From a bacterium (lineage in GTDB: Bacteria; Patescibacteriota; Minisyncoccia; UBA6257; UBA9933): a stretch of DNA of 64,000 nucleotides. The DNA lies in the NCBI GenBank assembly GCA_021791445.1, contig JAJYWO010000002.1, forward strand, positions 21,757 to 85,756. Reading direction: 5' to 3'. Positions within the stretch are counted from its first letter, which is position 1, and the number at the start of each line of letters is the position of its first letter. Positions 7,472-60,932 of the stretch are shown piece after piece. A program made the position numbers and the translations under genes. The notes beneath the pieces were generated by a model, which was not told the origin of the DNA, did not search any database, and saw nothing but the letters and a program-made list of their open reading frames with translations.

Positions 7472-8239
7472 GTGTATTATTCCAATTTAGAGGGTTTTAA
7501 AAAGCTTTCCGGCTATGAAATAGACGGCGTTTGGTATCCGCGCGTCACGAAAATCGTGGAAATCAAGGCTAAGCCGGCTTTATACAGATTTTACGCGGAA
7601 TTGAACAATTTTGCCGAAGGCGAGTCGATAAAGGAAAAATCCGCCAGCGAAGGCACTTTAATCCACGAGGCGGCGGAGAAAATTTTTATCGGCGAATCCC
7701 CTGTCATTGACCCGTCAATCGCGCCTTCCATTGAAGCGCTTGTTAATTTTATTGAGAAAAAGAATATTCAAGTTGACCCGGAATTTGTTGAAAAGCAAGT
7801 TGTCCATTACGGAGACCGTTACGCCGGCACATTGGATGCCGTGGCTTTAATTGACGGGAAATTGGGCATCTTAGACATTAAAACATCGCAAGCCATTTAT
7901 CGCGATTACAATCTTCAGACATCGGCTTACATAGCCGCTTTGCACAGCAGTTTGAATAATCTTCAGACGAGATGGATTTTAAGGATAGATCAAACCAAGA
8001 TTTGCTTGAAATGCGGCGCCGTGTTGCGTTCCAAGGGCGGGCGGGATAAAATCCGCGCGCCGAAAGTGAAAAACGGCGTCAATCACGAAAAATGCGAGCA
8101 TCGCTGGTCCGAGCTTCGCGGTGAAATAGAACTTAAAGAATTTCCCTATTGGCAGGAGGATTACAAGGCGTTTTTGGGAGCGAAAAAGTTATGGGAATGG
8201 GAAAATGAGTATTGGTTGAAGAAGGCGGGATATTTATAA
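7472..8239 (+). CDS. PD-(D/E)XK family nuclease with a C-terminal zinc ribbon
   Basis: GTLDAVALIDGKLGILDIKTSQAIYRDYNLQTSAY gives D..D-x-K and QxxxY motifs. C-terminal CLKCG...HEKCEH. Likely a GTG start. Confidence 0.6.
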   Translation: MYYSNLEGFKKLSGYEIDGVWYPRVTKIVEIKAKPALYRFYAELNNFAEGESIKEKSASEGTLIHEAAEKIFIGESPVIDPSIAPSIEALVNFIEKKNIQVDPEFVEKQVVHYGDRYAGTLDAVALIDGKLGILDIKTSQAIYRDYNLQTSAYIAALHSSLNNLQTRWILRIDQTKICLKCGAVLRSKGGRDKIRAPKVKNGVNHEKCEHRWSELRGEIELKEFPYWQEDYKAFLGAKKLWEWENEYWLKKAGYL

Positions 8240-8264
8240 GGAAAAATTTTATTTTCCCTCAACC

Positions 8265-8365
8265 CGCTTCGCTCGCCCCAGCGAGGCGAGCTCGCTTATT
8301 CCTCGGCTCGCTCCCCCGCCTGCGGCGGGGACCATGCCCGCTCGCCTGCGCAGGTTTCGGAGAAA
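8265..8365. repeat. GC-rich cluster of three hairpins (GCTCGCC/GGCGAGC, CCCCGCC-TGC-GGCGGGG, CCTGCGCAGG), REP-like
   Basis: Seen in the sequence. Strongly GC-rich against an AT-rich background. It generates the spurious ORF 8212..8484. Confidence 0.5.
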
Positions 8366-8454
8366 ACAAAATTTTTCCTTATAAATTTATTATTGTTATA
8401 AAAAAACAGCCCGGCAAGGTTTTTATCCTTGAACCGGGTCTTATTAAATTAATT

Positions 8455-15652: not shown

Positions 15653-15759
15653 GCTCTTCCTGGGTGGCTTTTATTGTCTGTAAGCCGCCCGTTGGCCTGA
15701 TATAAATTTTACTTCGTAAAATTTATGTGGCCAACCCACTTCGCTAATCGCGCAATTTG

Positions 15760-17468: not shown

Positions 17469-19643
17469 ATGAATTTAATAATTGTAGAGTCCCCGACAAA
17501 GACAAAAACAATTTCAAAATATCTCAAAGGAAATTATATTGTCCGCGCCAGTGTGGGGCATATTCGCGATTTGCCGAAAAGCAACAAAAAAGCTATAGAC
17601 ATTCCGGCCGGTTTTGTTCCGCATTATGAAACCATTCCGGGCAAAGAAAAAATCATTAAAGAAATAAGCAACGACGCCAAAAAAGCGAAAAAAGTCATTC
17701 TAGCCACAGATCCTGACCGCGAAGGAGAAGCAATCGCCTTTCATTTGACTCAAGCGCTTAATTTGGATGAAAACAAAACCCAACGCATTGTTTTCAATGA
17801 AATCACCCAATCTGCCGTTGAAGAAGCTATAAAACATCCGCGCGCCATTGATATGGATTTAGTCAGGGCTCAAGAAGCGCGCAGGGTTTTAGACAGATTG
17901 GTTGGTTACGATTTAAGCGGTTTGATTTGGAAAAAAGTGCGCTACGGCTTGTCGGCCGGCCGCGTTCAATCCCCCGCTTTACGCATAATAATGGAACGGG
18001 AGCGCGAAATCCGCGCTTTTATTCCGGAAGATTATTGGATAATCAGCGGAGAATTCAAAACCGAACACGGCAATAAAATTATTTTAACTTGCGATGAACA
18101 GCCGAAAAACGAAAAAGAAACCAGCCGCATTATTGAAACAGCGAAAAAAAATAAAAATAACTGGCAAATCGTAAATATAAGTCAAACCGAAGCCAAGCGT
18201 TCGCCGCGTCCGCCCTTTATCACTTCCACTTTGCAGCAGACTGCCAGTTCGCGGCTCGGTTATTCCCCTTCCCGCACAATGTCCATTGCCCAGAAACTTT
18301 ACGAACAAGGGCTTATCACTTATATGAGGACGGACAGCGTGAATCTAAGTAAAGAAGTTTTGCCGCAGATTTACGGAACAATAGAAAAGCAATTTGGAAA
18401 AGATTATCTTCAGCCGAGAATTTATACATCCAAAAGCAAAACCGCCCAGGAAGCGCACGAAGCCATTCGGCCGTCCAATGCCGGATTAAAAACAGCGGGG
18501 GCTAACGATGAACAGAAAAAACTTTATCAACTTATCTGGCAAAGAACAATCGCTTCACAAATGGTTGACGCGAAAATTTTACGGACGAAAATTTCCGCGA
18601 ATATTTTGTCAGGAGGAATTCCGAATTTTTCCGTTAACGGCAGTATTATGCTGTTCCCCGGCTGGTTGGCGGCTGATCCCGCGGCGCGCGGCGAAGATGT
18701 TGAATTGCCGAAATTAAATCAAGGCGAGAATTTGAAATTATTGGATATTTCAAGCGAAGGCAAGCAAACCGAACCGCCTTCAAGATACACTGATGCCGGC
18801 CTAATTAAAGAACTTGAAAAACGCGAAATCGGCAGGCCGAGCACTTACGCGTCAATCATTAAGACAATCGTTGACCGCGGTTATGTTGAAAAAGAAGGAA
18901 AAACTTTGAAGCCGACCGATACCGGAGACGTTGTAAGCACTTTTTTGGAAAACAATTTCGCTAAATATATTAGCGATTCTTTTACCGCGGAGATGGAAAA
19001 CAAACTTGATGAAATAGCGGAGGGAAAAAGAAAATACGAAAAAATGCTTGGCGATTTTTACAAGCCGTTTTTGAAAGAAGTAAAAGCTAAGGAAAAAACG
19101 GCGGAAAAAATTACCAATCTCGGCGAAGCGGATAAAAAACATAAATGCCCTGTTTGTAACGGGCCAATGGTGATAAAACTTTCCCGAACCGGCAAGTTTT
19201 TAAGCTGCGCTAAATTTCCCGAATGTTCCGGCGCGCGTAAAATAGACGGTTCAATAATGGAAGGTCCGAAAGAAACCGGTGAAATTTGTCCGCAATGTGG
19301 AGGTAAGTTAATTGAACGCGAAGGCAGGTTTGGGAAATTCGTGGCTTGCTCTAATTATCCGAAGTGTAAATTTATTAAAACCAGTGCTGAAGAAGAAAAT
19401 CGCCGCAAAACCGGTGTGAAATGCCCAAGTTGCGGGAAAGGCGAGATTACGGAACGCCGCGGCAGATTCGGCTTATTTTATTCCTGTTCCAATTATCCCA
19501 ACTGTAAATTCATCATGAAATCCCGCCCAACGGACAATATCTGCAAACTCTGCGGTTCCCTAATGATGGAGGGGACAAAAACAATTCCGGAAAGGTGTAG
19601 TAATGTAAAATGTCCGAATAATAGGCCAGATAAGAAAAAATAA
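17469..19643 (+). CDS. topA: DNA topoisomerase I
   Basis: N-terminal TOPRIM (IVESPTK) and C-terminal C4 zinc ribbons. Confidence 0.9.
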   Translation: MNLIIVESPTKTKTISKYLKGNYIVRASVGHIRDLPKSNKKAIDIPAGFVPHYETIPGKEKIIKEISNDAKKAKKVILATDPDREGEAIAFHLTQALNLDENKTQRIVFNEITQSAVEEAIKHPRAIDMDLVRAQEARRVLDRLVGYDLSGLIWKKVRYGLSAGRVQSPALRIIMEREREIRAFIPEDYWIISGEFKTEHGNKIILTCDEQPKNEKETSRIIETAKKNKNNWQIVNISQTEAKRSPRPPFITSTLQQTASSRLGYSPSRTMSIAQKLYEQGLITYMRTDSVNLSKEVLPQIYGTIEKQFGKDYLQPRIYTSKSKTAQEAHEAIRPSNAGLKTAGANDEQKKLYQLIWQRTIASQMVDAKILRTKISANILSGGIPNFSVNGSIMLFPGWLAADPAARGEDVELPKLNQGENLKLLDISSEGKQTEPPSRYTDAGLIKELEKREIGRPSTYASIIKTIVDRGYVEKEGKTLKPTDTGDVVSTFLENNFAKYISDSFTAEMENKLDEIAEGKRKYEKMLGDFYKPFLKEVKAKEKTAEKITNLGEADKKHKCPVCNGPMVIKLSRTGKFLSCAKFPECSGARKIDGSIMEGPKETGEICPQCGGKLIEREGRFGKFVACSNYPKCKFIKTSAEEENRRKTGVKCPSCGKGEITERRGRFGLFYSCSNYPNCKFIMKSRPTDNICKLCGSLMMEGTKTIPERCSNVKCPNNRPDKKK

Positions 19644-20331: not shown

Positions 20332-22044
20332 ATGGATGTCAAGGATTTAATTAGGGATTATTTTAATGATGATGAAAAGCGGCTTATCAGGCGCGCTTTT
20401 GATTTTGCCAAAAAACAGCACCAAGGGCAGAAAAGAAAATCCGGCGAGCCGTATTTTACCCATTGTTTTCAAACCGCGCTAAAACTTGCCGAATGGCAAA
20501 TGGACGCTACGACAATCTCCGCCGGTTTGCTTCACGATGTTATTGAAGATACGAAAATCCCGCTGGAAAATTTTAAAAAAGAATTTGGCGAAGAAATCGC
20601 TTTTCTTGTTGACGGCGTCACGAAAATCGGACGTGTGAAATATCGCCAGCAAAATGGTGAAGTGACCGCCATACAATCGGAAAATATCCGCAAGATGATT
20701 TTGGCGTTGAGCCAGGATTTACGCGTCATATTCATCAAACTCGCCGACCGATTGCATAATATGAAAACGCTCGGCGCTCTGCCTCCGCAAAAACAAAAAA
20801 GGATCGCCTTGGAAACCGCGGAAATTTACTCGCCTATCGCCTATCGCTTGGGAATGGCGAATTTGGCCGGCGAATTGGAAGATTTAGCCTTCCCCTTTCT
20901 TCATCAAAAAGAATATAAATGGCTTTCGGAAAACATTAAAGAAAAATTTGAAGAGCGCCAGAAATATTCGGAAAAAGTGAAAATTGAAGTTGAAAAAGCG
21001 CTGAAAGAGCACAAAATAGAGCCGATAAAAATAGATTTCCGCGCCAAAAGATACAGCAGTTTGTATAAAAAATTGTTCCGGACCAGTATGAATCTGGAAC
21101 AGATTTACGATTTAGTGGCGTTGAGAATAATTGTGAAAACAGTTGAAGAATGCTACGCGGTTTTGGGCATTATTCATCAACTTTGGCCGCCTATGCCCGG
21201 CAGAATAAAAGATTATATTGCCATGCCGAAGCCGAACGGCTATCGCAGTTTGCACACCACGGTTTTCTGCGTTGACAACAAGCCGACCGAATTTCAAATC
21301 AGGACTGCGGAAATGCATGAGGAAGCGGAAAACGGCATCGCGGCTTATTGGGCTTATTCCCAGGCAAAAAGCGGCAAAGATTATCAAAAAAAGAAAGCGA
21401 TTTTCGCGGAGAAAAAGGAATTGGCGTGGATTAACCAATTAAAAGAATGGCAGGGAGAAACCGCTGGTTCCGAAGAATTTCTGCAATCATTGAAAATAGA
21501 TTTTTTAAAAGACAGGATTTTCGCCATTACTCCCAAGGGCGAGGTTGTTGATTTGCCGGCTGGTTCCACTCCGGTGGATTTCGCTTATATGATTCATACG
21601 GACATAGGCAACCAATGCGTCGGCGTGAGGATTAACGGTAAAATAATGCCGCTTGATTATCAACTGCAATCCGGAGATTTGGTGGAAATTCTGGTGCAAA
21701 AAAGCAAAAAACCGTCGCAATCCTGGCTTGAATTCGCCAAAACTTCCATTGCCAAAAAAAGAATCAAGGCGGCGCTCAGAGGTTTGCCGAGCATTATGCG
21801 CGGAAAATCCGATATATTTGAATTCAAAATAATCGCCGAAGACAGAGTTGGGTTGATTAAGGATGTTTCATCGGTGTTTTCCCGGAGCCATATTAACATT
21901 CAAAATCTCAATACCGCCGATATGGCGGAACAATCGGTAGTCAGGGCGCGCTGCGAAATAAACGAGGAAAAAACCGCCAAGTTATTGGTCTTGAAATTGA
22001 AAAAAATAAAAGGAGTAAGGGAAATAAGTTTTAGGAGGGCTTAG
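20332..22044 (+). CDS. rsh: Bifunctional (p)ppGpp synthetase/hydrolase (RelA/SpoT homolog)
   Basis: HD domain (HDVIEDT), synthetase motif RIKDYIAMPKPNGYRSLHTTV, TGS and ACT regions. Confidence 0.9.
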   Translation: MDVKDLIRDYFNDDEKRLIRRAFDFAKKQHQGQKRKSGEPYFTHCFQTALKLAEWQMDATTISAGLLHDVIEDTKIPLENFKKEFGEEIAFLVDGVTKIGRVKYRQQNGEVTAIQSENIRKMILALSQDLRVIFIKLADRLHNMKTLGALPPQKQKRIALETAEIYSPIAYRLGMANLAGELEDLAFPFLHQKEYKWLSENIKEKFEERQKYSEKVKIEVEKALKEHKIEPIKIDFRAKRYSSLYKKLFRTSMNLEQIYDLVALRIIVKTVEECYAVLGIIHQLWPPMPGRIKDYIAMPKPNGYRSLHTTVFCVDNKPTEFQIRTAEMHEEAENGIAAYWAYSQAKSGKDYQKKKAIFAEKKELAWINQLKEWQGETAGSEEFLQSLKIDFLKDRIFAITPKGEVVDLPAGSTPVDFAYMIHTDIGNQCVGVRINGKIMPLDYQLQSGDLVEILVQKSKKPSQSWLEFAKTSIAKKRIKAALRGLPSIMRGKSDIFEFKIIAEDRVGLIKDVSSVFSRSHINIQNLNTADMAEQSVVRARCEINEEKTAKLLVLKLKKIKGVREISFRRA

Positions 22045-22064
22045 GTTTTTAATAGCGCCCCCCT

Positions 22065-22322
22065 CTAAAACTTTTCTCGCTCACGACGCTCAGGTTAAAT
22101 AAATCAAATCACTCCAATCGCCCCGCACCTTTTCTTTTAATGATTTTTCTTTAATTTTACACTTAAGACGAAAGTCGGCTTCGCCTTTTAACTTTTTTTA
22201 TACTGTAAATCATGGCTGGAAAAGGTGCGGGGCTTCAATCCGCTCATTGATTTATAATTAACCTTGCGCGATGTTCGCTATGAAAAGTTTTGGAGGAGGG
22301 GTGTAAATAAAACTGAAAAATT
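22065..22322 (+). repeat. MITE-like element, copy A. About 60-bp imperfect terminal inverted repeats flank a 14-bp stem (GCCCCGCACCTTTT/AAAAGGTGCGGGGC) that encloses roughly 95 nt.
   Basis: The termini match the reverse complement of 42055-42306 at about 85%. The core differs between the two copies. Confidence 0.55.
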
Positions 22323-22480
22323 TTTCCGTAGTGAGTATCGCGGAAGAGCGTCTAAAAATCTGTTCATTTATAGCGTAGCGAGCCAGGCCCCCGAGCGAAG
22401 GCGAATTGGGTGGCGAGCAGCGTAATAAATGAACAAGATTTTTACGCTCTGGAGCGCCTACGAACGAGGAAAGATTTTTC
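22323..22480. repeat. Nested long inverted repeats around a GC-rich core (gcgagc-type), between copy A and parB
   Basis: CTGAAAAATTTTTCC/GGAAAGATTTTTCAG and GCGTCTAAAAATCTGTTCATTTAT/ATAAATGAACAAGATTTTTACGC pair with each other. Confidence 0.35.
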
Positions 22481-22492
22481 AGTTTTGATAGC

Positions 22493-23554
22493 TTATTTAG
22501 GATTCAGTTTTTCAATAATCCCTCTGATTTCTTCGGGTGAGAAGAATGAAATGATAATTTTCCCCTTTTCTCCTTCTCCGCCGGCCGGCGGATCTATTTT
22601 CACCGGAGCGCCGAGAAGTTCCATCAACTGTTCCTGTAAGGCGCCGAGTTCCGGGTCTGTTGTTGGAATTTTCGCGTCTGCCGGCTGGCGGATGGTTTTT
22701 TCTTCCGTTGGTTTTGTTTCGCGCCTGATTTTATTTTTTAATTCCCTGACGCTTAAATTATTCGCCAAAAGGTCGTAAAAAGCCGCCATCTGCTGGCTTA
22801 AGTCGTTAATGGTCAAAAGCAACCTCCCTTGGCTGTCGTTTATTTTTCCTTCCGCGAGCGCGTCTTGGATTTCCGTGGGCAGATTCAAAAGTCGTATCGT
22901 GTTGGCGATTGTTTCACGGCTCTTGCCGAGCTTGGCGGCAATTTCCCTTTGAGTCAAACCAAAATGGTCTTGTAATTTGGCGTAAGCTCTGGCGGTTTCA
23001 ATGGAATTAAGATTGGCGCGCTGGATATTTTCCACAATCGCCATTTCCATTTGCGGAGCGCCCGGAGCGATTCTTTTAATAATCGCCGGAATCCGCTCAA
23101 GTCCCGCCAATTTTGAAGCCATCAATCGGCGTTCTCCGGCGATAAGCTGATATTCAATTTGCGTGCCGTTTTCAACTTCGTGTTCTATTTTCGTAACAAC
23201 TATAGGTTGAATAATTCCGAATTCGCGGATTGACGCCGCCAGTTCTTTAAGCGATTCTTCGTCAAAAGTTTTTCGCGGCTGGAAAGGATTGGGTTTTATT
23301 TTTTCTATTTCAATATGAAAAATCGCGTCTTTGTGGAAAGAAGATTTTTCTTCCACTGATTGCGGTTTAACTGCTTGCGGCTGTTCTTGCAGTTGCGTTT
23401 GCTGCGGCTGGACTTGCGGTTGAGAAACTTGCGCTTGTTGAATTTGCGGCGCGAATTCGTGATAATGTTCTGTATCCGTCAAAGGCAGCATAAACGGCGC
23501 TTCTTCCTGCGGCTGTTGAGATTGTTGGGGTTGTTGAATATTTTGTTCGTCCAT
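22493..23554 (-). CDS. parB: ParB/Spo0J-like partition protein with a Gln/Pro-rich N-terminal extension
   Basis: ParB N-domain (GIIQPIVV..GERR) and HTH. The first ~70 aa are Q/P-rich low complexity. A copy of the REP hairpin sits in frame at 22687-22702. Confidence 0.8.
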   Translation of the reverse strand: MDEQNIQQPQQSQQPQEEAPFMLPLTDTEHYHEFAPQIQQAQVSQPQVQPQQTQLQEQPQAVKPQSVEEKSSFHKDAIFHIEIEKIKPNPFQPRKTFDEESLKELAASIREFGIIQPIVVTKIEHEVENGTQIEYQLIAGERRLMASKLAGLERIPAIIKRIAPGAPQMEMAIVENIQRANLNSIETARAYAKLQDHFGLTQREIAAKLGKSRETIANTIRLLNLPTEIQDALAEGKINDSQGRLLLTINDLSQQMAAFYDLLANNLSVRELKNKIRRETKPTEEKTIRQPADAKIPTTDPELGALQEQLMELLGAPVKIDPPAGGEGEKGKIIISFFSPEEIRGIIEKLNPK

Positions 23555-23690: not shown

Positions 23691-23705
23691 CCGACTCATA
23701 TAACC

Positions 23706-23756
23706 GCTCCCATAGCTTAGTGGTAAATCCGCCAGCTGGCGGACTTTTAAGCAATT
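23706..23756 (+). pseudogene. tRNA-Lys 5' fragment in which the D-stem 3' strand and anticodon-stem 5' strand are replaced by palindrome TCCGCCAGCTGGCGGA
   Basis: GCTCCCATAGCTTAGTGGTAAA is identical to the 5' end of the intact tRNA-Lys. It then runs palindrome (23728-23743) followed by CTTTTAAGCAATT. Confidence 0.5.
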
Positions 23757-23768
23757 AATTAATATATT

Positions 23769-24032
23769 ATGGAAAAATTTTTTGTCTATGCTATTTACAA
23801 TAAAGAAAAGAATAAAATTTATATTGGACATACAATTAATTTAGAAAATAGATTAAAAAGACATAATGGGTTATTGAAAAATAAAAATAAATCATTTACA
23901 AGTAAAAATAGCGGCGTATGGGAAATAATTTATAATGAGAATTTAAATGCAAGAAAAGAAGCGATTCTAAGAGAAAAACAATTAAAAAGCGCTAAGGGTA
24001 GAGAATTTGTAAAAAGTTTGATAAGAATATAG
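23769..24032 (+). CDS. Stand-alone GIY-YIG nuclease (YhbQ/Slx1-like, 87 aa)
   Basis: FFVYAIY...IYIGHT.NLE.RLKRHN plus conserved downstream E and R..GRE residues. Confidence 0.75.
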   Translation: MEKFFVYAIYNKEKNKIYIGHTINLENRLKRHNGLLKNKNKSFTSKNSGVWEIIYNENLNARKEAILREKQLKSAKGREFVKSLIRI

Positions 24033-24064: not shown

Positions 24065-24135
24065 GCTCCCATAGCTTAGTGGTAAAGCAGTTGCCTTTTA
24101 AGCAATTGATCAAGGTTCGATTCCTTGTGGGAGCA
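24065..24135 (+). tRNA. tRNA-Lys(TTT)
   Basis: Canonical cloverleaf. Anticodon loop CTTTTAA. Discriminator A. Confidence 0.9.
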
Positions 24136-24151
24136 CATTTGGCTTTTTTAA

Positions 24152-24228
24152 ATCCATAGCTTAGTGGTAAATCCGCCGGCTGGCGGACTTTTAAGCAATT
24201 GATCAAGGTTCGATTCCTTGTGGGAGCA
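24152..24228 (+). pseudogene. tRNA-Lys-like pseudogene with a degenerate 5' acceptor and palindrome TCCGCCGGCTGGCGGA (24172-24187) in place of the anticodon-stem 5' strand
   Basis: The 3' two-thirds are identical to tRNA-Lys. The 5' acceptor AAATCCA cannot pair with TGGGAGC. Confidence 0.5.
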
Positions 24229-28790: not shown

Positions 28791-28864
28791 TGTATAATTA
28801 TAAATATGTTTTCATAAAATATTTATTTTCGACCATTCGCTTTATAAACATTTATCTTATAAAA

Positions 28865-28902
28865 TATAACATTTTATCTACGATCGCAAATAAAATGTTA
28901 TA
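28865..28902. promoter_or_regulatory. 38-bp palindromic operator TATAACATTTTATCTACGATCGCAAATAAAATGTTATA, about 75 nt upstream of grpE
   Basis: Inverted repeat seen in the sequence. It belongs to the four-member family, with the others at 28990, 29688 and 45311. Confidence 0.5.
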
Positions 28903-28989
28903 TTTTAATAATAATATCTATTTTTAATAAATCAATAGTAAATTATATAGATAAAATATAGTTAATTCAATTTTAGAATAAAAATAAAA

Positions 28990-29027
28990 TATAACAAATT
29001 GTTTACGATCGTAAGTAATTTGTTATA
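28990..29027. promoter_or_regulatory. Second palindromic operator TATAACAAATTGTTTACGATCGTAAGTAATTTGTTATA
   Basis: Inverted repeat with a central TTACGATCGTAA. Lies between the regulator stop and grpE. Confidence 0.5.
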
Positions 29028-29038
29028 CAATATTAAAA

Positions 29039-29662: not shown

Positions 29663-29687
29663 TTATTATTTTTTATTCCGCATTAAA

Positions 29688-29731
29688 AAGTATAACATCT
29701 TACTGCCGATCGGCAATGAAATGTTATACTT
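29688..29731. promoter_or_regulatory. Palindromic operator AAGTATAACATCTTACTGCCGATCGGCAATGAAATGTTATACTT, 26 nt upstream of the regulator gene and divergent from cysS
   Basis: Near-perfect 44-bp palindrome of the same family. Confidence 0.5.
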
Positions 29732-29803
29732 TTTGTATTTTATTAATATCCTTGGAGTTGTCAATAGTTGCGCATAAAGAGGAAATTTAATAGAATTAAC
29801 GCA

Positions 29804-34630: not shown

Positions 34631-34873
34631 TTATTCTTGAAAAAGATATTTAATTCGTTCTCTTCCTTTCCCTGACTTCAAAAATAATTCTTCTCTTTTG
34701 GCATCTTTCTCTGAAATAAAAGCTTCATAATAAATTAATTCCCAAGGACCATTGTTTTTAGTAAAAATAGAATTGCCGGAATTATGTTCTCTGATTCTTC
34801 GTCTTAAATCATTAGTATAAGCCTTGTATAATTTATTATTTTTTAAACTTTTTAATATATAAACATAATACAT
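34631..34873 (-). CDS. Stand-alone GIY-YIG nuclease (80 aa), immediately upstream of tRNA-Ser
   Basis: YYVYIL...LYKAYTNDLRRRIREHN plus a conserved E and GRE. Confidence 0.75.
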   Translation of the reverse strand: MYYVYILKSLKNNKLYKAYTNDLRRRIREHNSGNSIFTKNNGPWELIYYEAFISEKDAKREELFLKSGKGRERIKYLFQE

Positions 34874-42054: not shown

Positions 42055-42306
42055 TTTTTATTACGCCCCTCTCCAAAACTTTTCATAGCGAACATCGCGC
42101 AAGGTTAAGGATAAATCAATGAGCGGAATGAAGGATTTTTTGACTATAAATTTAATGGTCGGAAAACTCCTGACATAATTTTACGAAGTAAAATTATGGC
42201 GGAGGGTAAACGGGCACCGTTAAATTTATTCAAAAAATCAGATTGGAGCGATTTGATTTATTTAACCTGAGCGTCGTGAGCGAGAAAAGTTTTAGAGAAG
42301 GGCGCA
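42055..42306 (-). repeat. MITE-like element, copy B. Inverted relative to copy A, with the same terminal repeats and a different core that contains hairpin CATAATTTTAC-TTCG-GTAAAATTATG.
   Basis: Both ends match 22065-22322 in reverse complement. Abuts the stop codon of the SIMPL gene. Confidence 0.55.
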
Positions 42307-42311
42307 CCTCC

Positions 42312-43094
42312 CTACTCTATCTCGTATCTTAAAATTACATTGACCTTTATTTCCTGCGAACCGGGTTCTATTTGCGGGGCCGGCAAAGAAGTTTCCATCG
42401 CGGTTTTCGCAAAACCGCCGATTCCATATCCGTAAATCGGCTCCGAATAGCCGCCCTCGTCAATGGAAAGCAATTTCCCGACTTTAAAATCCCCCGCTTC
42501 GGCAATCAATTTCGCCCGCTCTTTAGCTTTTTTAATCGCTTCTTCGCGCGCTTTATCTTGAATAACTGATAAATCGTCAATGTTGAAAGAAAGCTGGGAA
42601 ACCGAATTGGCGCCGTTTTGGACAACTCCCGCCATAATATCGCCTATTTTTTCAAAATTTCTTATTTTTACGGCAATCGTTTGGGTAATCGTATATCCGA
42701 CGATTTCAGCCGGCGGACACGGCTCTGCCGCTTCCCGCGAAATCGGACAAGAATAATACTGGTACCGCGGGTCAAGATTGTAATTTTGCGTTTTAATGTC
42801 TTTATCCACGACTCCGCTTAATTTCGCGAAATTGATTATTTTATTCGTTTTGTCGGTATTTTCCTTTTGCAATTTAGCGATATCTTTGCCGCCCTCGGTT
42901 ATCACGCTAAAAGTGAATTGCGCGATATCCGGAATCGCCGTTATTTTACCCTCTCCGCTCGCTGAAAAACTGCGGAAAGAAGACGGCTGAATAGATTTTG
43001 AATAACTGTTCACGTACGACATTACCGACAAAGCGAAAATAAACAAAACCGCGATTATGGCAATACCGAGATAATTTTTTATTTTTATATTCAT
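42312..43094 (-). CDS. SIMPL/DUF541 (BP26-like) periplasmic protein
   Basis: N-terminal signal/TM segment. Family-level resemblance only. Confidence 0.45.
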   Translation of the reverse strand: MNIKIKNYLGIAIIAVLFIFALSVMSYVNSYSKSIQPSSFRSFSASGEGKITAIPDIAQFTFSVITEGGKDIAKLQKENTDKTNKIINFAKLSGVVDKDIKTQNYNLDPRYQYYSCPISREAAEPCPPAEIVGYTITQTIAVKIRNFEKIGDIMAGVVQNGANSVSQLSFNIDDLSVIQDKAREEAIKKAKERAKLIAEAGDFKVGKLLSIDEGGYSEPIYGYGIGGFAKTAMETSLPAPQIEPGSQEIKVNVILRYEIE

Positions 43095-45304: not shown

Positions 45305-45310
45305 TTATTT

Positions 45311-45356
45311 AAAGTATAACATTTTGTTGTCGATCGACAACAAAATGTTATACTTT
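45311..45356. promoter_or_regulatory. 46-bp perfect palindrome AAAGTATAACATTTTGTTGTCGATCGACAACAAAATGTTATACTTT, 6 nt upstream of the rtcB ATG
   Basis: Same family as the grpE and regulator operators. No Shine-Dalgarno sequence lies between it and the ATG. Confidence 0.55.
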
Positions 45357-45378
45357 TCGCAATTTATAATTATTATTC

Positions 45379-46412: not shown

Positions 46413-46829
46413 ATGGCTTTTATAAAATGGGATATGTCGTACAGCGTCGGCGTAAAAATGATTGATGCCCAGCATCAGAAGCTTTTTGCGCTGATTAACG
46501 ATTTTTATAATTCCGTAAAAATGAAAACGGAAAATCTGGAACCGGTGGATTCCGCTTTGCAGGATTTATTTTCCTACATTGATTTTCATTTCAAAACCGA
46601 AGAGAAGTATTTTGAAGAGTTCGGCTACGAAAAAACCGAAGAGCATAAAAAACAACACAAATTTTACGAAGACAAAATAAAAGACTTGAATGAACGGTAT
46701 CAAAAAACCAAAAACGAACAAGAAATCAGCGAAGAAATAATAAATTTCATCAAAGACTGGATTTCAAACCACATTAAAATTTCCGACAAAGAATATAAAA
46801 TATGCTTTAACGAACACGGATTGGTTTAA
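46413..46829 (+). CDS. Hemerythrin-like metal-binding protein
   Basis: The translation has spaced His/Glu pairs compatible with an HHE cation-binding fold: H..H...E...F, HKKQH and EH. Confidence 0.6.
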   Translation: MAFIKWDMSYSVGVKMIDAQHQKLFALINDFYNSVKMKTENLEPVDSALQDLFSYIDFHFKTEEKYFEEFGYEKTEEHKKQHKFYEDKIKDLNERYQKTKNEQEISEEIINFIKDWISNHIKISDKEYKICFNEHGLV

Positions 46830-47584
46830 TCAAATTCTCTTACTGCGGAAACATAGGCGCAATAATCGCAATTGTCGCCTGCCTCGGGAATTTCATCTCT
46901 TACTAAACACTTATGCGCTTCTGTAATAGCGCCCTCCACCCATTTATCATCGCCTTCGTAAGGGATAAGCGTAATGTCAAATTCCAATCTTGCGTCAAAC
47001 GCTTTTTTATCCGTTATGCCGTTGCAATAAACGAAATATCCGGTGTCTGAAACCTTGAATTCGTTTTTCCGCAAAAGCCACTGATAAATTTCCATCTGCC
47101 TTTTATAGCTGTCCTGCCACGCTTTGTCCAACGCTTCTATTTTTTCATTCTTGCTGGTTGCCTTGTAATCAACCACAATATATTCCCTTTTTGAGTTTTG
47201 CCACAGATCGTCAATCGCGCCGGTTATTAAAAAATTCGTCGGCTCATGCAAATACTGCACTCCGGTAAAATTATGCCGCCACAAATCCAAATTTTTATGG
47301 TTAATGGGAACGGCGTCAATGCCGTATTTTTCAATCAAAGGATGTTTCTGATTTTTCGCCCGGTGGATGTCAAATTCTTTTTTAAGCAAAGCGTCAACCG
47401 CGCTGTTCAAGCTGAAAGGAAATCCCGGGGGACGGCCGATTCCCAAACGCCGATCCAAATAAAAACACCTCGGGCATTCCAAAAAGAGCTCCAACTTGGA
47501 ACGGCTCACTTTGAACGGACTGCTTGAATTCGGATTAAAGATATTATTTGTTCTTTTGGGATTATAATATTCGGACATTATCAA
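46826..47584 (-). CDS. Cas4/RecB-like PD-(D/E)XK nuclease with Cys pairs at both termini
   Basis: ECPRC N-terminal and CDYC C-terminal pairs. Motifs IDDLW...VVDYK and QMEIYQWLL (QxxxY). Confidence 0.55.
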   Translation of the reverse strand: MIMSEYYNPKRTNNIFNPNSSSPFKVSRSKLELFLECPRCFYLDRRLGIGRPPGFPFSLNSAVDALLKKEFDIHRAKNQKHPLIEKYGIDAVPINHKNLDLWRHNFTGVQYLHEPTNFLITGAIDDLWQNSKREYIVVDYKATSKNEKIEALDKAWQDSYKRQMEIYQWLLRKNEFKVSDTGYFVYCNGITDKKAFDARLEFDITLIPYEGDDKWVEGAITEAHKCLVRDEIPEAGDNCDYCAYVSAVREFD

Positions 47585-48850: not shown

Positions 48851-48949
48851 TTAAAAAATATCGGAATTTCCAGAGCATCGTCATAATTTCTTTGCTTATG
48901 TTTTTTTAACCAAGTCATTGAACAATTCCATAGAATTGTTCAATAAATC

Positions 48950-48988: not shown

Positions 48989-49273
48989 CTCCGCAGGTAG
49001 GATTCGAACCTACGACCAACCGCTTACACTTATCTTAATATTTCTATTAAGGGTGGACTATATCTTCGCCATTAATAAATAAATTTATTATTAGGCGTTT
49101 TGGTATCTAGTCTCTACGGCGCCTCCGACAAAACGTCGGAGTTCCCACGGTATTACCACTTCCTTACTATGGCGGAAAAGGCTTCACCGTTATCCCAAAA
49201 TGTTCATTACTAAGTTTCCTTAGAAAGCTGCGTTATTTCACAGGCGGCCGCTCTACCACTGAGCTACTGCGGA
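48989..49273 (-). tRNA. tRNA, probably tRNA-Asn(GTT), interrupted by a 213-nt group I intron in the anticodon loop
   Basis: Exons give TCCGCAG/CTGCGGA acceptor, D arm GCTC/GAGC, anticodon stem GCCGC/GCGGT, T arm GTAGG-TTCGAAT-CCTAC, and discriminator G. The Asn identity assumes the splice follows CUGU and lands before UAA. Confidence 0.65.
49027..49239 (-). ncRNA. Group I intron (self-splicing ribozyme) with no ORF
   Basis: R-like element GTAGAGACTAGA and S element AAGATATAGTCC, which form P7. The 5' exon ends in U and the intron ends in G. A possible P1 pairs exon CUGU with intron GCAG. Confidence 0.6.
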
Positions 49274-49311
49274 ATATTCAATTTTTACGAATTACAGTAT
49301 ATAATTTCGGA

Positions 49312-53953: not shown

Positions 53954-56038
<2,085 letters not shown>

Positions 56039-57049: not shown

Positions 57050-57748
57050 TTATTTTATTTGTTCAAAATCCTTAAAAACGACCAATGCGATAATTATCAA
57101 TAAAAACAGCGGATAAAGTAACATGCTTAAAACGCTTATCTTGCTGGAAATAAGTATAAGATAATTGAAAAAACCGTGCAAGACACTGGCGATGACAAGA
57201 CCTGTAATAATTTTTAATTTCCATCCGCCGGCCGACGGATTAATTTTCAATAAACCCTTTGCCCAATAATAGCCGACAATGGCCGAGCTTAAAGCGTGCA
57301 ATAAAGTGGCGCCATTGAAACGAATAACTAAAAGTCCGTAAATTCCGCCGTCTTGCCAACCGTTGTCTATGAAAGCGCTCGCGGCCAAAAAGATATTTTC
57401 CAAAGCCGCGAACCCCAAAGCCGCGGTAATCATATAAATCATCGCGTCAACCGGCTCGTCGAAATCCTTATCGCCTTTCACGGTGGCGTAAACCACCAAA
57501 AATTTCAAAACTTCCTCAACCGCCCCTAAAACCAAAAAAGAGAAAAAATCAAATTCTCCGATTTTAAAAAAATTCAAAATGTCCTTGAAAAAAATCTGGA
57601 AAACCACCGCCATAAAAGCGACTATCATTCCCCAGATAAAAACCCGCGCCAGCTTTTTTTTCGGCTCCGGGTGGTCATCCTCTTTCAAAAAGAAAACAAG
57701 CCAGATTAAAGACGGCAAAACGCCGAGCAAAATAGCAAAAATCAACAT
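57050..57748 (-). CDS. PrsW-like intramembrane protease
   Basis: EEVLKF (EExxK), GFAALENI and conserved His residues within TM helices. Confidence 0.5.
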   Translation of the reverse strand: MLIFAILLGVLPSLIWLVFFLKEDDHPEPKKKLARVFIWGMIVAFMAVVFQIFFKDILNFFKIGEFDFFSFLVLGAVEEVLKFLVVYATVKGDKDFDEPVDAMIYMITAALGFAALENIFLAASAFIDNGWQDGGIYGLLVIRFNGATLLHALSSAIVGYYWAKGLLKINPSAGGWKLKIITGLVIASVLHGFFNYLILISSKISVLSMLLYPLFLLIIIALVVFKDFEQIK

Positions 57749-60821: not shown

Positions 60822-60843
60822 GAATACCAAACATACCAATAGC

Positions 60844-60932
60844 AATCGTAAAATTATTTCTGAAACCTAAACGGAAGCGCAGTCCGCCCTGGGCGGACGT
60901 GAGCGGGTTGAAGAAATAATTTTACGATTGCG
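60844..60932. repeat. 20-bp perfect inverted repeat (GCAATCGTAAAATTATTTCT/AGAAATAATTTTACGATTGC) enclosing REP hairpin TCCGCC-CTG-GGCGGA, in the 23S-5S spacer
   Basis: Seen in the sequence. Could be a processing stem or an inserted element. Confidence 0.4.

Follow-up and report, generated by a model that had tools for sequence, protein, structure and literature searches.

A non-coding repeat of about 245 nt was found in two inverted copies, A and B, in the 64-kb stretch of DNA analysed here (the window), and contigs from other assemblies of the same species point to a third copy, X. The three copies are probably members of a non-autonomous mobile repeat family of a REPIN/MITE-like kind in a Wolfebacteria-like genome. 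The repeat behaves like a small parasitic mobile element that has settled after at least three housekeeping genes. Its build of conserved arms around a swappable core is unusual, and so is its host; the general kind of element is known. The host was placed in Candidatus Wolfebacteria (Patescibacteria) by homologues of its rsh and SIMPL genes.

Genomes of CPR bacteria (Patescibacteria) are approximately 1 Mb in size, tightly packed, and generally thought to be poor in mobile DNA. Full-text literature searches returned no paper on miniature repeat elements in CPR. Here, one 64-kb window and a few related contigs contained at least four families of long hairpin repeats, which replace one another at the same gene ends among close relatives while pairing is kept via compensatory change. 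Such repeats probably mediate chromosome rearrangements and break short-read assemblies. In practice, they explain contig breakpoints in CPR genome bins and provide strain markers, and they offer a tractable case of how non-autonomous elements persist in minimal genomes and of the enzyme that moves them.

Structure and sites of copies A, B, and X

Copy A is located between the convergent genes rsh (RelA/SpoT) and parB, and copy B between a SIMPL gene and an HlyD-like membrane-fusion gene, the start of which is 83 nt downstream of the copy. All of these are ordinary housekeeping genes. The copies and their parts were delimited as follows (window coordinates, strand in brackets).

22055-22303 (+): copy A, 249 nt, starting 10 nt after the rsh stop codon (22042-22044); from repeat finder, alignment, and fold
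22055-22119 (+): left arm of A, 95% identical to the minus strand of B 42241-42305
22120-22232 (+): core of A (type 1), 113 nt, a 15-16-bp perfect stem around weakly structured ~80 nt
22233-22303 (+): right arm of A, 93% identical to B 42066-42133 on the minus strand
42064-42305 (-): copy B, 242 nt, starting 6 nt past the stop codon of SIMPL (42312-42314, minus strand)
42241-42305 (-): left arm of B; from repeat finder and alignment
42134-42240 (-): core of B (type 2), 107 nt, a GATTTTTTGAATAAATTTAA stem and an apical TTCG-capped hairpin
42064-42133 (-): right arm of B, inside which the crossover or assembly switch with copy X falls

The original prediction had placed the elements at 22065-22322 and 42055-42306, the first 20 nt after the rsh stop and the second abutting the SIMPL stop, with ends matching in inverted orientation at about 85% identity. 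The inverted match was confirmed; the limits and distances are corrected above, and the identity was higher. By the repeat finder, 22233-22300 pairs with 42066-42133 (68 nt, 93% complementary) and 22055-22119 with 42241-42305 (65 nt, 95%), and no other inverted repeat in the window is as long as these two arm pairs. The termini of each copy are also imperfect inverted repeats of each other, as had been described (32 nt at 75% in A, 21 nt at 90% in B), and in the folds the gapped pairing runs for ~65 nt.

When A (plus strand) was aligned with B (minus strand), conservation ended abruptly at ...CTCCAATC and restarted at CTTCAWTCCGCTC. The cores in between could not be aligned, which agrees with the claim of distinct structured cores: that of A has a stem of 15-16 bp (GCCCCGCACCTTTTC/GAAAAGGTGCGGGGC), and that of B has the stem GATTTTTTGA.../...TCAAAAAATC below its TTCG-capped hairpin. 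According to the fold, the left arm of A consists of an outer stem GCGCCCCCCTCTAAAACTTTTC, a poorly paired middle TCGCTCACGACGCTC, an inner stem AGGTTAAATAAATCAA, and an internal-loop strand ATCACTCCAATC. The right arm starts with the other internal-loop strand, CTTCAATCCGCTCA, continues with the strands opposite the inner stem, the middle, and the outer stem, and ends in GGAGGAGGGGTG. Each internal-loop strand differs by 1 nt between A and B. By eye, the arms hold only local stems of 3-4 bp (TCG-CTCA-CGA, GCGA-ACA-TCGC). The features common to the left arm and the reverse-complemented right arm were written as the pattern AAACTTTTC-N12-20-GGTTAA-N0-5-TAAATCA, which matched exactly the four arms in the window and gave 0 matches in 100 shuffles.

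Each copy folds as a rod of ~120 bp (A: -98 kcal/mol, z -10.5; B: -92 kcal/mol, z -9.6). The opposite strands reached -95.8 kcal/mol each, and the nearly equal folding of both strands is as expected of a DNA palindrome and gives no evidence for one transcribed strand. The outermost layer of the rod is a nearly perfect outer stem of 20-22 bp. Next come the conserved middle segment, in which TCGCTCACGACGCTC faces GCGCGATGTTCGCTAT with poor pairing, and an inner stem of 16 bp; beyond these, ATCRCTCCAATC and CTTCAWTCCGCTCA form the two sides of a conserved internal loop. The apex is the ~110-nt core, a hairpin in both copies despite the unrelated sequence.

The final codons of rsh (AAGTTTTAGGAGGG) show complementarity to the beginning of the A left arm (CCCCTCTAAAACTT; window 22015-22084), and the end of SIMPL and copy B show a similar short pairing (window 42293-42314). 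Either pairing could give rise to an alternative fold in competition with the long hairpin. As the rsh sequence is ancestral (it is present in the related contig L032), its match to A may be either a coincidence or a target preference.

The repeat has no coding capacity. A terminator scan of both loci detected no T-run after A or B, and the terminator-like matches found there were short internal or junction stems, not the long hairpin. Promoter-like sites numbered 0 in A and one, weak, in core B. The combined promoter and terminator counts were within ~1 standard deviation of shuffles at A and ~3 above them at B. The extended -10 promoter of the HlyD-like gene was left intact by B.

The sequence of A and B is no assembly artefact, since one or the other was found identical in NCBI, ENA, and Logan assemblies from several samples. 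Copy A is unchanged in the NCBI contig DAHWPA010000047, and copy B is identical in NCBI GCA_023474725.1 and in an ENA contig. Four Logan contigs stop 48 nt past the rsh stop, at the first 30-mer common to A and B, and Logan contigs that reach B from both sides also end within the B arms, behaviour typical of a repeat.

The order DprA-TopA-(small ORF)-rsh, followed by convergent parB, is kept in three relatives, where the stop-to-stop spacer between rsh and parB is 31 nt (L032, rsh 83% identical), 6 nt (L048, 82%), and 16 nt (L035, 75%). In the window, this spacer is 448 nt and comprises 10 nt, A, 5 nt, the neighbouring hairpin element C (178 nt), and 6 nt. Given the 6-31-nt spacers in the relatives, A and C are lineage-specific additions to an originally tiny spacer, and on this comparative evidence A is an insertion at rsh/parB. 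Gene order on either side of A and of B is that of relatives, so the 20-kb segment between them is not inverted.

Copy X was recognised from two short hybrid contigs in other assemblies of the same species, L052 (GCA_021836325.1) and L059 (GCA_021841705.1). L059 runs from a UPF0102 gene through 12 nt, a left arm, a B-type core, and a right arm to HlyD. Over 2300 nt it has 6 differences from the window, all in the left arm and core (window 42141-42277), so that right arm, spacer, and 1.75-kb gene are free of differences; the core of X is ~97% identical to that of B. L052 consists of SIMPL and B, identical up to ...GTTTTGGAGA, and then an unrelated promoter, a 105-aa ORF, and FolD. Together, the two contigs are the reciprocal junctions expected if B exchanged with X within the 68-nt right arm. 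Judging from these junctions, X is a third copy, presumably located between UPF0102 and FolD, whether the hybrids are real or assembly switches. The hybrids could reflect recombination between copies (an inversion, if the copies are inverted on the chromosome) or path switching by the assembler, which suggests either a population-polymorphic, element-mediated rearrangement or systematic assembly chimeras at the repeat. A look-up of FolD returned a relative at 96% with a different upstream region.

The distance from the preceding stop codon is 6-12 nt for A, B, and X, and all three have one orientation with respect to the gene before them. The genes concerned (rsh, SIMPL, and UPF0102, respectively) represent non-homologous loci. 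No target-site duplication was found at A (flanks AATA and TAAA), B (AGGT and TAAT), or X (TAATT and AAATC).

At gathering thresholds, Rfam models applied to the whole window gave no family at A, B, or C, which agrees with the prediction in excluding a known ncRNA there. At a permissive threshold (E <= 10), the only matches at the A and B loci were to plant miRNA hairpin models, far below threshold (best 30 bits against 230 needed). The hybrid B/X copies (L052, L059) and the related elements of contigs L037 and L041 likewise gave no Rfam family. The arm pattern, which is degenerate, has two gaps, and fits all four arms, was searched in 185,579 GTDB species genomes, JGI metagenomes, and IMG/VR (the source genome being absent), and only single chance matches were found, as checked by BLAST and by eye; if mobile, the family is thus confined to a very narrow lineage. 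A C-core pattern gave 0 matches in IMG/VR, and phage and plasmid collections returned no match when the entire 448-nt spacer was used as a blastn query. With the four arms combined in an nhmmer profile, no extra copies were detected in ~270 kb of Wolfebacteria sequence, nor was there a further copy in 9.2 kb of the same strain added to the left of the window.

The original prediction noted that no transposase was present. This holds for the window, where Pfam searches of ~55 ORFs revealed no transposase, integrase, reverse transcriptase, or Nop-domain protein. The only nuclease-like small genes in the window are two GIY-YIG ORFs, a clear PD-(D/E)XK protein (46826-47584), and a PolB-type exonuclease; ORF 7472-8239 has a weak, sub-threshold PD-(D/E)XK match. 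No candidate transposase or IS with matching ends was found in ~73 kb of the strain and ~200 kb from relatives, and Y1_Tnp (RAYT) had no match in the scanned ORFs or in the Pfam lists of related loci, a search that covered ~73 kb of the strain. The description as MITE-like is supported by the inverted repeats, by the further copy X elsewhere in the same species, and by the rsh/parB sites empty in three related species. It does not extend to strict MITE membership, as neither a target-site duplication nor a cognate transposase was found.

Neighbouring hairpin families

Other long hairpins were identified in the window and in related contigs. L041 is a Hainich groundwater contig from another species, with a SIMPL protein 84% identical to that of the window.

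22309-22486 (-): element C, a 178-nt hairpin in tandem with A, 6 nt from the parB stop codon
L041:10925-11105: second C copy, 86% identical, 9 nt after the stop of an HlyD-like gene, a non-orthologous site
L041:11109-11315: element F, a 207-nt hairpin in tandem after the L041 C copy
8232-8386 (+): element D8k, a hairpin starting at the stop codon of ORF 7472-8239
L037:10799-10945: element G, a 147-nt hairpin after SIMPL
60842-60931 (-): window copy of element E, a hairpin in the 23S-5S spacer
L041:9001-9105: L041 copy of element E, 105 nt, after SIMPL

The two E copies are 76% identical over 87 nt (E 4e-10); they differ in the apical hairpin and one outer stem block and have an identical middle. 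A centre of ~50 nt in D8k is related to G (z 8.2). Homology between A/B and C was also considered, on the basis of a likeness of their middle segments by eye, and was rejected: local alignment gave z 1.5-2.4, within the range of dinucleotide shuffles.

The site after SIMPL carries a different hairpin in each of four lineages: B in the window, E in L041, G in L037, and a small hairpin in L036. In covariation counts based on two sequences per family, 9 of 60 stem pairs in C and 8 of 32 in E were changed on both sides, with 0 broken, and the asymmetric middle segments were nearly invariant in both pairs. Like the A/B family, members of the C, E, and D8k/G pairs are located 0-18 nt after a stop codon or in the rRNA operon spacer, each in the same orientation to transcription as its partner, a statistic that is weak with four pairs (P about 0.06).

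The strand antisense to the upstream gene folded more stably by 0.4-15 kcal/mol in seven of nine elements, via extra G-T pairs (compared were A, B, C, D8k, and E of the window, C, E, and F of L041, and G of L037). This bias may reflect compositional skew or a bottom-strand function.

The small hairpin of L036, ATTGAACAATTC-CATA-GAATTGTTCAAT, is shared with the window together with its left flank (window 48907-48945, L036:1920-1944). In L036 it directly follows the SIMPL stop (SIMPL 91% identical), and the contig ends there. The two occurrences suggest another short repeated hairpin.

Nature of the repeat and alternative explanations

Mobility is supported by copies at non-homologous loci, by the empty rsh/parB sites in relatives, and by the presence of unrelated hairpin families at non-orthologous sites as well. 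In the mechanism that we propose, the arms would carry the recognition sites of an enzyme whose gene lies elsewhere in the genome. Such an enzyme would act on a folded or extruded hairpin, as RAYT does on REPINs and single-strand transposases do on IS200/IS605 ends. The arms are conserved and presumably recognised, and the core would be exchangeable wholesale, constrained only to pair. Because these genomes are almost devoid of other spare DNA, an insertion would be tolerated only within the few bases that separate a stop codon from the next gene or promoter. Where ancestral spacers measure 6-31 nt and promoters must be preserved, no targeting mechanism is needed to account for the proximity to stop codons. 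The copies would be co-transcribed with the upstream gene and could serve as substrates of homologous recombination that rearranges the chromosome.

Among known systems, REPINs are doublets of REP sequences that form hairpins and are mobilised by RAYT tyrosine transposases. The present repeat resembles them in being non-coding and extragenic, mostly at gene 3' ends, with inverted conserved ends and without target-site duplication, and in its tandem clusters and lineage persistence. REPINs have conserved inverted ends and a less conserved hairpin-forming spacer, with common compensatory changes (PMC3116915). The differences are in size (~245 nt here versus about 90-110 nt, with ends of ~65 nt versus REP palindromes of 20-35 nt), in the core (replaced wholesale here, drifting in REPINs), in copy number (three copies known so far versus tens to hundreds), and in that no RAYT gene was seen within ~73 kb of the strain. 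Considering the conserved arms, the free but paired core, and the compensatory changes in neighbouring hairpin families, the REPIN fit is at least as good as that of a classical DDE-derived MITE. Of the systems compared, REPINs come closest to the repeat, though not to the point of strict membership.

Correia elements of Neisseria and the enterobacterial ERIC/IRU elements are co-transcribed bacterial MITEs with a hairpin fold at the RNA level. They share with the repeat the form of 100-250-nt imperfect palindromes with long terminal inverted repeats in transcribed intergenic regions, variation of internal length at fixed positions, and presence in some relatives but not in others. However, Correia/ERIC elements come from known IS families and generate a TA target duplication, whereas neither a duplication nor, in ~73 kb of the strain and ~200 kb from relatives, a parent IS was found here, and the host is a Patescibacteria genome of ~1 Mb.

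Against mobility, only three copies are known, none with a target-site duplication, and no candidate transposase was found in ~73 kb of the strain and ~200 kb from relatives; the enzyme and its mechanism are ones that we infer. The compensatory stem changes in C and E and the shared orientation of A, B, and X would equally fit selection on a transcribed RNA structure. The main rival explanation, which we regard as unlikely, is accordingly that the hairpins are primarily cis-acting 3' UTR RNA (3' exonuclease barriers, RNase III sites, or weak terminators), kept because selection favours their folding and dispersed through occasional duplication, with no dedicated transposase. The positions of A/B/X, C, E, and D8k/G, 0-18 nt after stops or in an rRNA spacer and in one orientation, agree with such a role, as do the C and E stems, which change almost only by compensatory pairs, and one C:G to U:A double change between the outer stems of A and B. 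However, the elements are absent at the same genes in close relatives and hence dispensable, and the proximity to stop codons is forced where the ancestral spacer is as short as 6-31 nt. Folding does not favour the transcribed strand: A and B fold equally on both, and most of the elements compared fold better on the antisense strand. As for termination, A and B have no T-run, and the E copy between 23S and 5S cannot be a strong terminator. Structural drift also leaves the wholesale replacement of a 110-nt core unexplained.

We consider it rather improbable that A, B, and X are stacks of nested palindromes, built by hairpin units that insert preferentially into hairpin apices, with the cores as the youngest layer and the GCGCCC/GGGGCG tips as the oldest. 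Such nesting would suit the two unrelated cores, which occupy the same apical position, each with its own perfect terminal inverted repeat, and are flanked by the direct repeat TCCAATC...TTCAWTC. However, the right-hand repeat has the same T in A and in B/X and so predates the core difference, which does not fit two independent duplications. In copy X, pairing of the outermost flanks (ATTTT/AAAAT) persists although the GCGCCC/GGGGCG tips seen in A and B are missing, and the E copies, with their identical middle, differ at the apex and in an outer stem block, both as expected of layers; tandem arrangements (A next to C, C next to F) also occur. A second occurrence of the innermost TTCG hairpin of core B, standing by itself, is at 15702-15728, but this 24-nt match (23 of 24 positions, E 0.015) is of borderline significance, and neither core type was found free-standing in about 270 kb.

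Little credence is likewise given to a more far-reaching proposal, in which the elements, rather than ordinary MITEs driven by a transposase, would be Patescibacteria-specific, structure-selected palindromic replicators. These would comprise several families of 90-250-nt rods, with a conserved asymmetric middle and an exchangeable apex or outer stem, and would target hairpins or gene 3' ends by an enzyme type new to mobile DNA. One candidate would be the small stand-alone GIY-YIG nucleases, which are also lineage-specific insertions in the window.

That the copies are sites of a site-specific recombinase, whether cassette ends of the integron attC type or inversion sites on either side of the 20-kb segment from A to B, is a highly improbable explanation and was rejected on motifs, recombinase content, and synteny: although attC sites are likewise structure-defined imperfect palindromes after a stop codon, with conserved basal boxes, unpaired bases, and variable terminal structure, and A and B are inverted at gene 3' ends, the repeat has no R/L box consensus (RYYYAAC/GTTRRRY is absent, the ends reading CTAAAAC ... 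GTTTTGG) and is two to four times longer than attC, the window has no integrase, recombinase, or cassette array, the upstream rsh and SIMPL are conserved core genes in conserved synteny rather than cassettes, and the flanking gene order shows that the segment is not inverted.

A TIGR-Tas array was also ruled out. TIGR stem-loop arrays (Tas/Nop-domain systems) are present in CPR bacteria too, and consist of units in tandem, next to a Nop-domain Tas protein, with box C/D motifs on the flanks of variable 8-12-nt spacers (PMC12045711). The repeat is similar in its palindromic stems around a two-stranded internal loop and in its variable intervening segment. However, the elements here are single units, the loop strands are conserved between copies, in contrast to the variable spacers, and no Nop match was obtained even at E <= 1.

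Other features of the window

The two stand-alone GIY-YIG ORFs encode 87 aa (23769-24032, plus strand) and 80 aa (34631-34873, minus strand), are 37% identical to each other, and both adjoin tRNA genes. Around the first lie a partial 5' tRNA-Lys (23700-23762), an intact tRNA-Lys (24065-24136), and a tRNA-Lys-like copy (24150-24228) in which the palindrome TCCGCCGGCTGGCGGA replaces the 5' strand of the anticodon stem. In L032, the gap syntenic to this region is shorter, and no ORF was called in it.

A group I intron (RF00028, 59.9 bits versus a gathering threshold of 50, E 7e-15) was detected at 49034-49267 (minus strand) inside a tRNA gene at ~48990-49278, which it splits into the halves 49249-49278 and 48990-49020. 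This interrupted tRNA gene was picked up neither by the Rfam run on the whole window nor by ARAGORN or Rfam's tRNA model.

A perfect palindrome of ~46 bp, AAAGTATAACA-N-CGATCG-N-TGTTATACTTT, occurs at 28861-28908, 28986-29034, 29685-29734, and 45309-45357, upstream of grpE-dnaK-dnaJ, a PaaX-like regulator gene, and an rtcB-archease-LigT cluster. It is kept in a relative (L032:17748-17791 and 18439-18476). The palindrome looks like a putative operator of the PaaX-like regulator, which would place chaperones and RNA repair in one regulon.

A shorter palindrome of 16 nt, TCCGCCRGCYGGCGGA, is present at 11 sites in the window (e.g., 22577-22592, 54385-54400, and 57224-57239), usually followed by a T-rich tail, and is probably the standard intrinsic terminator of this genome. 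It was also found within the parB coding region and in tRNA-Lys-like copies.
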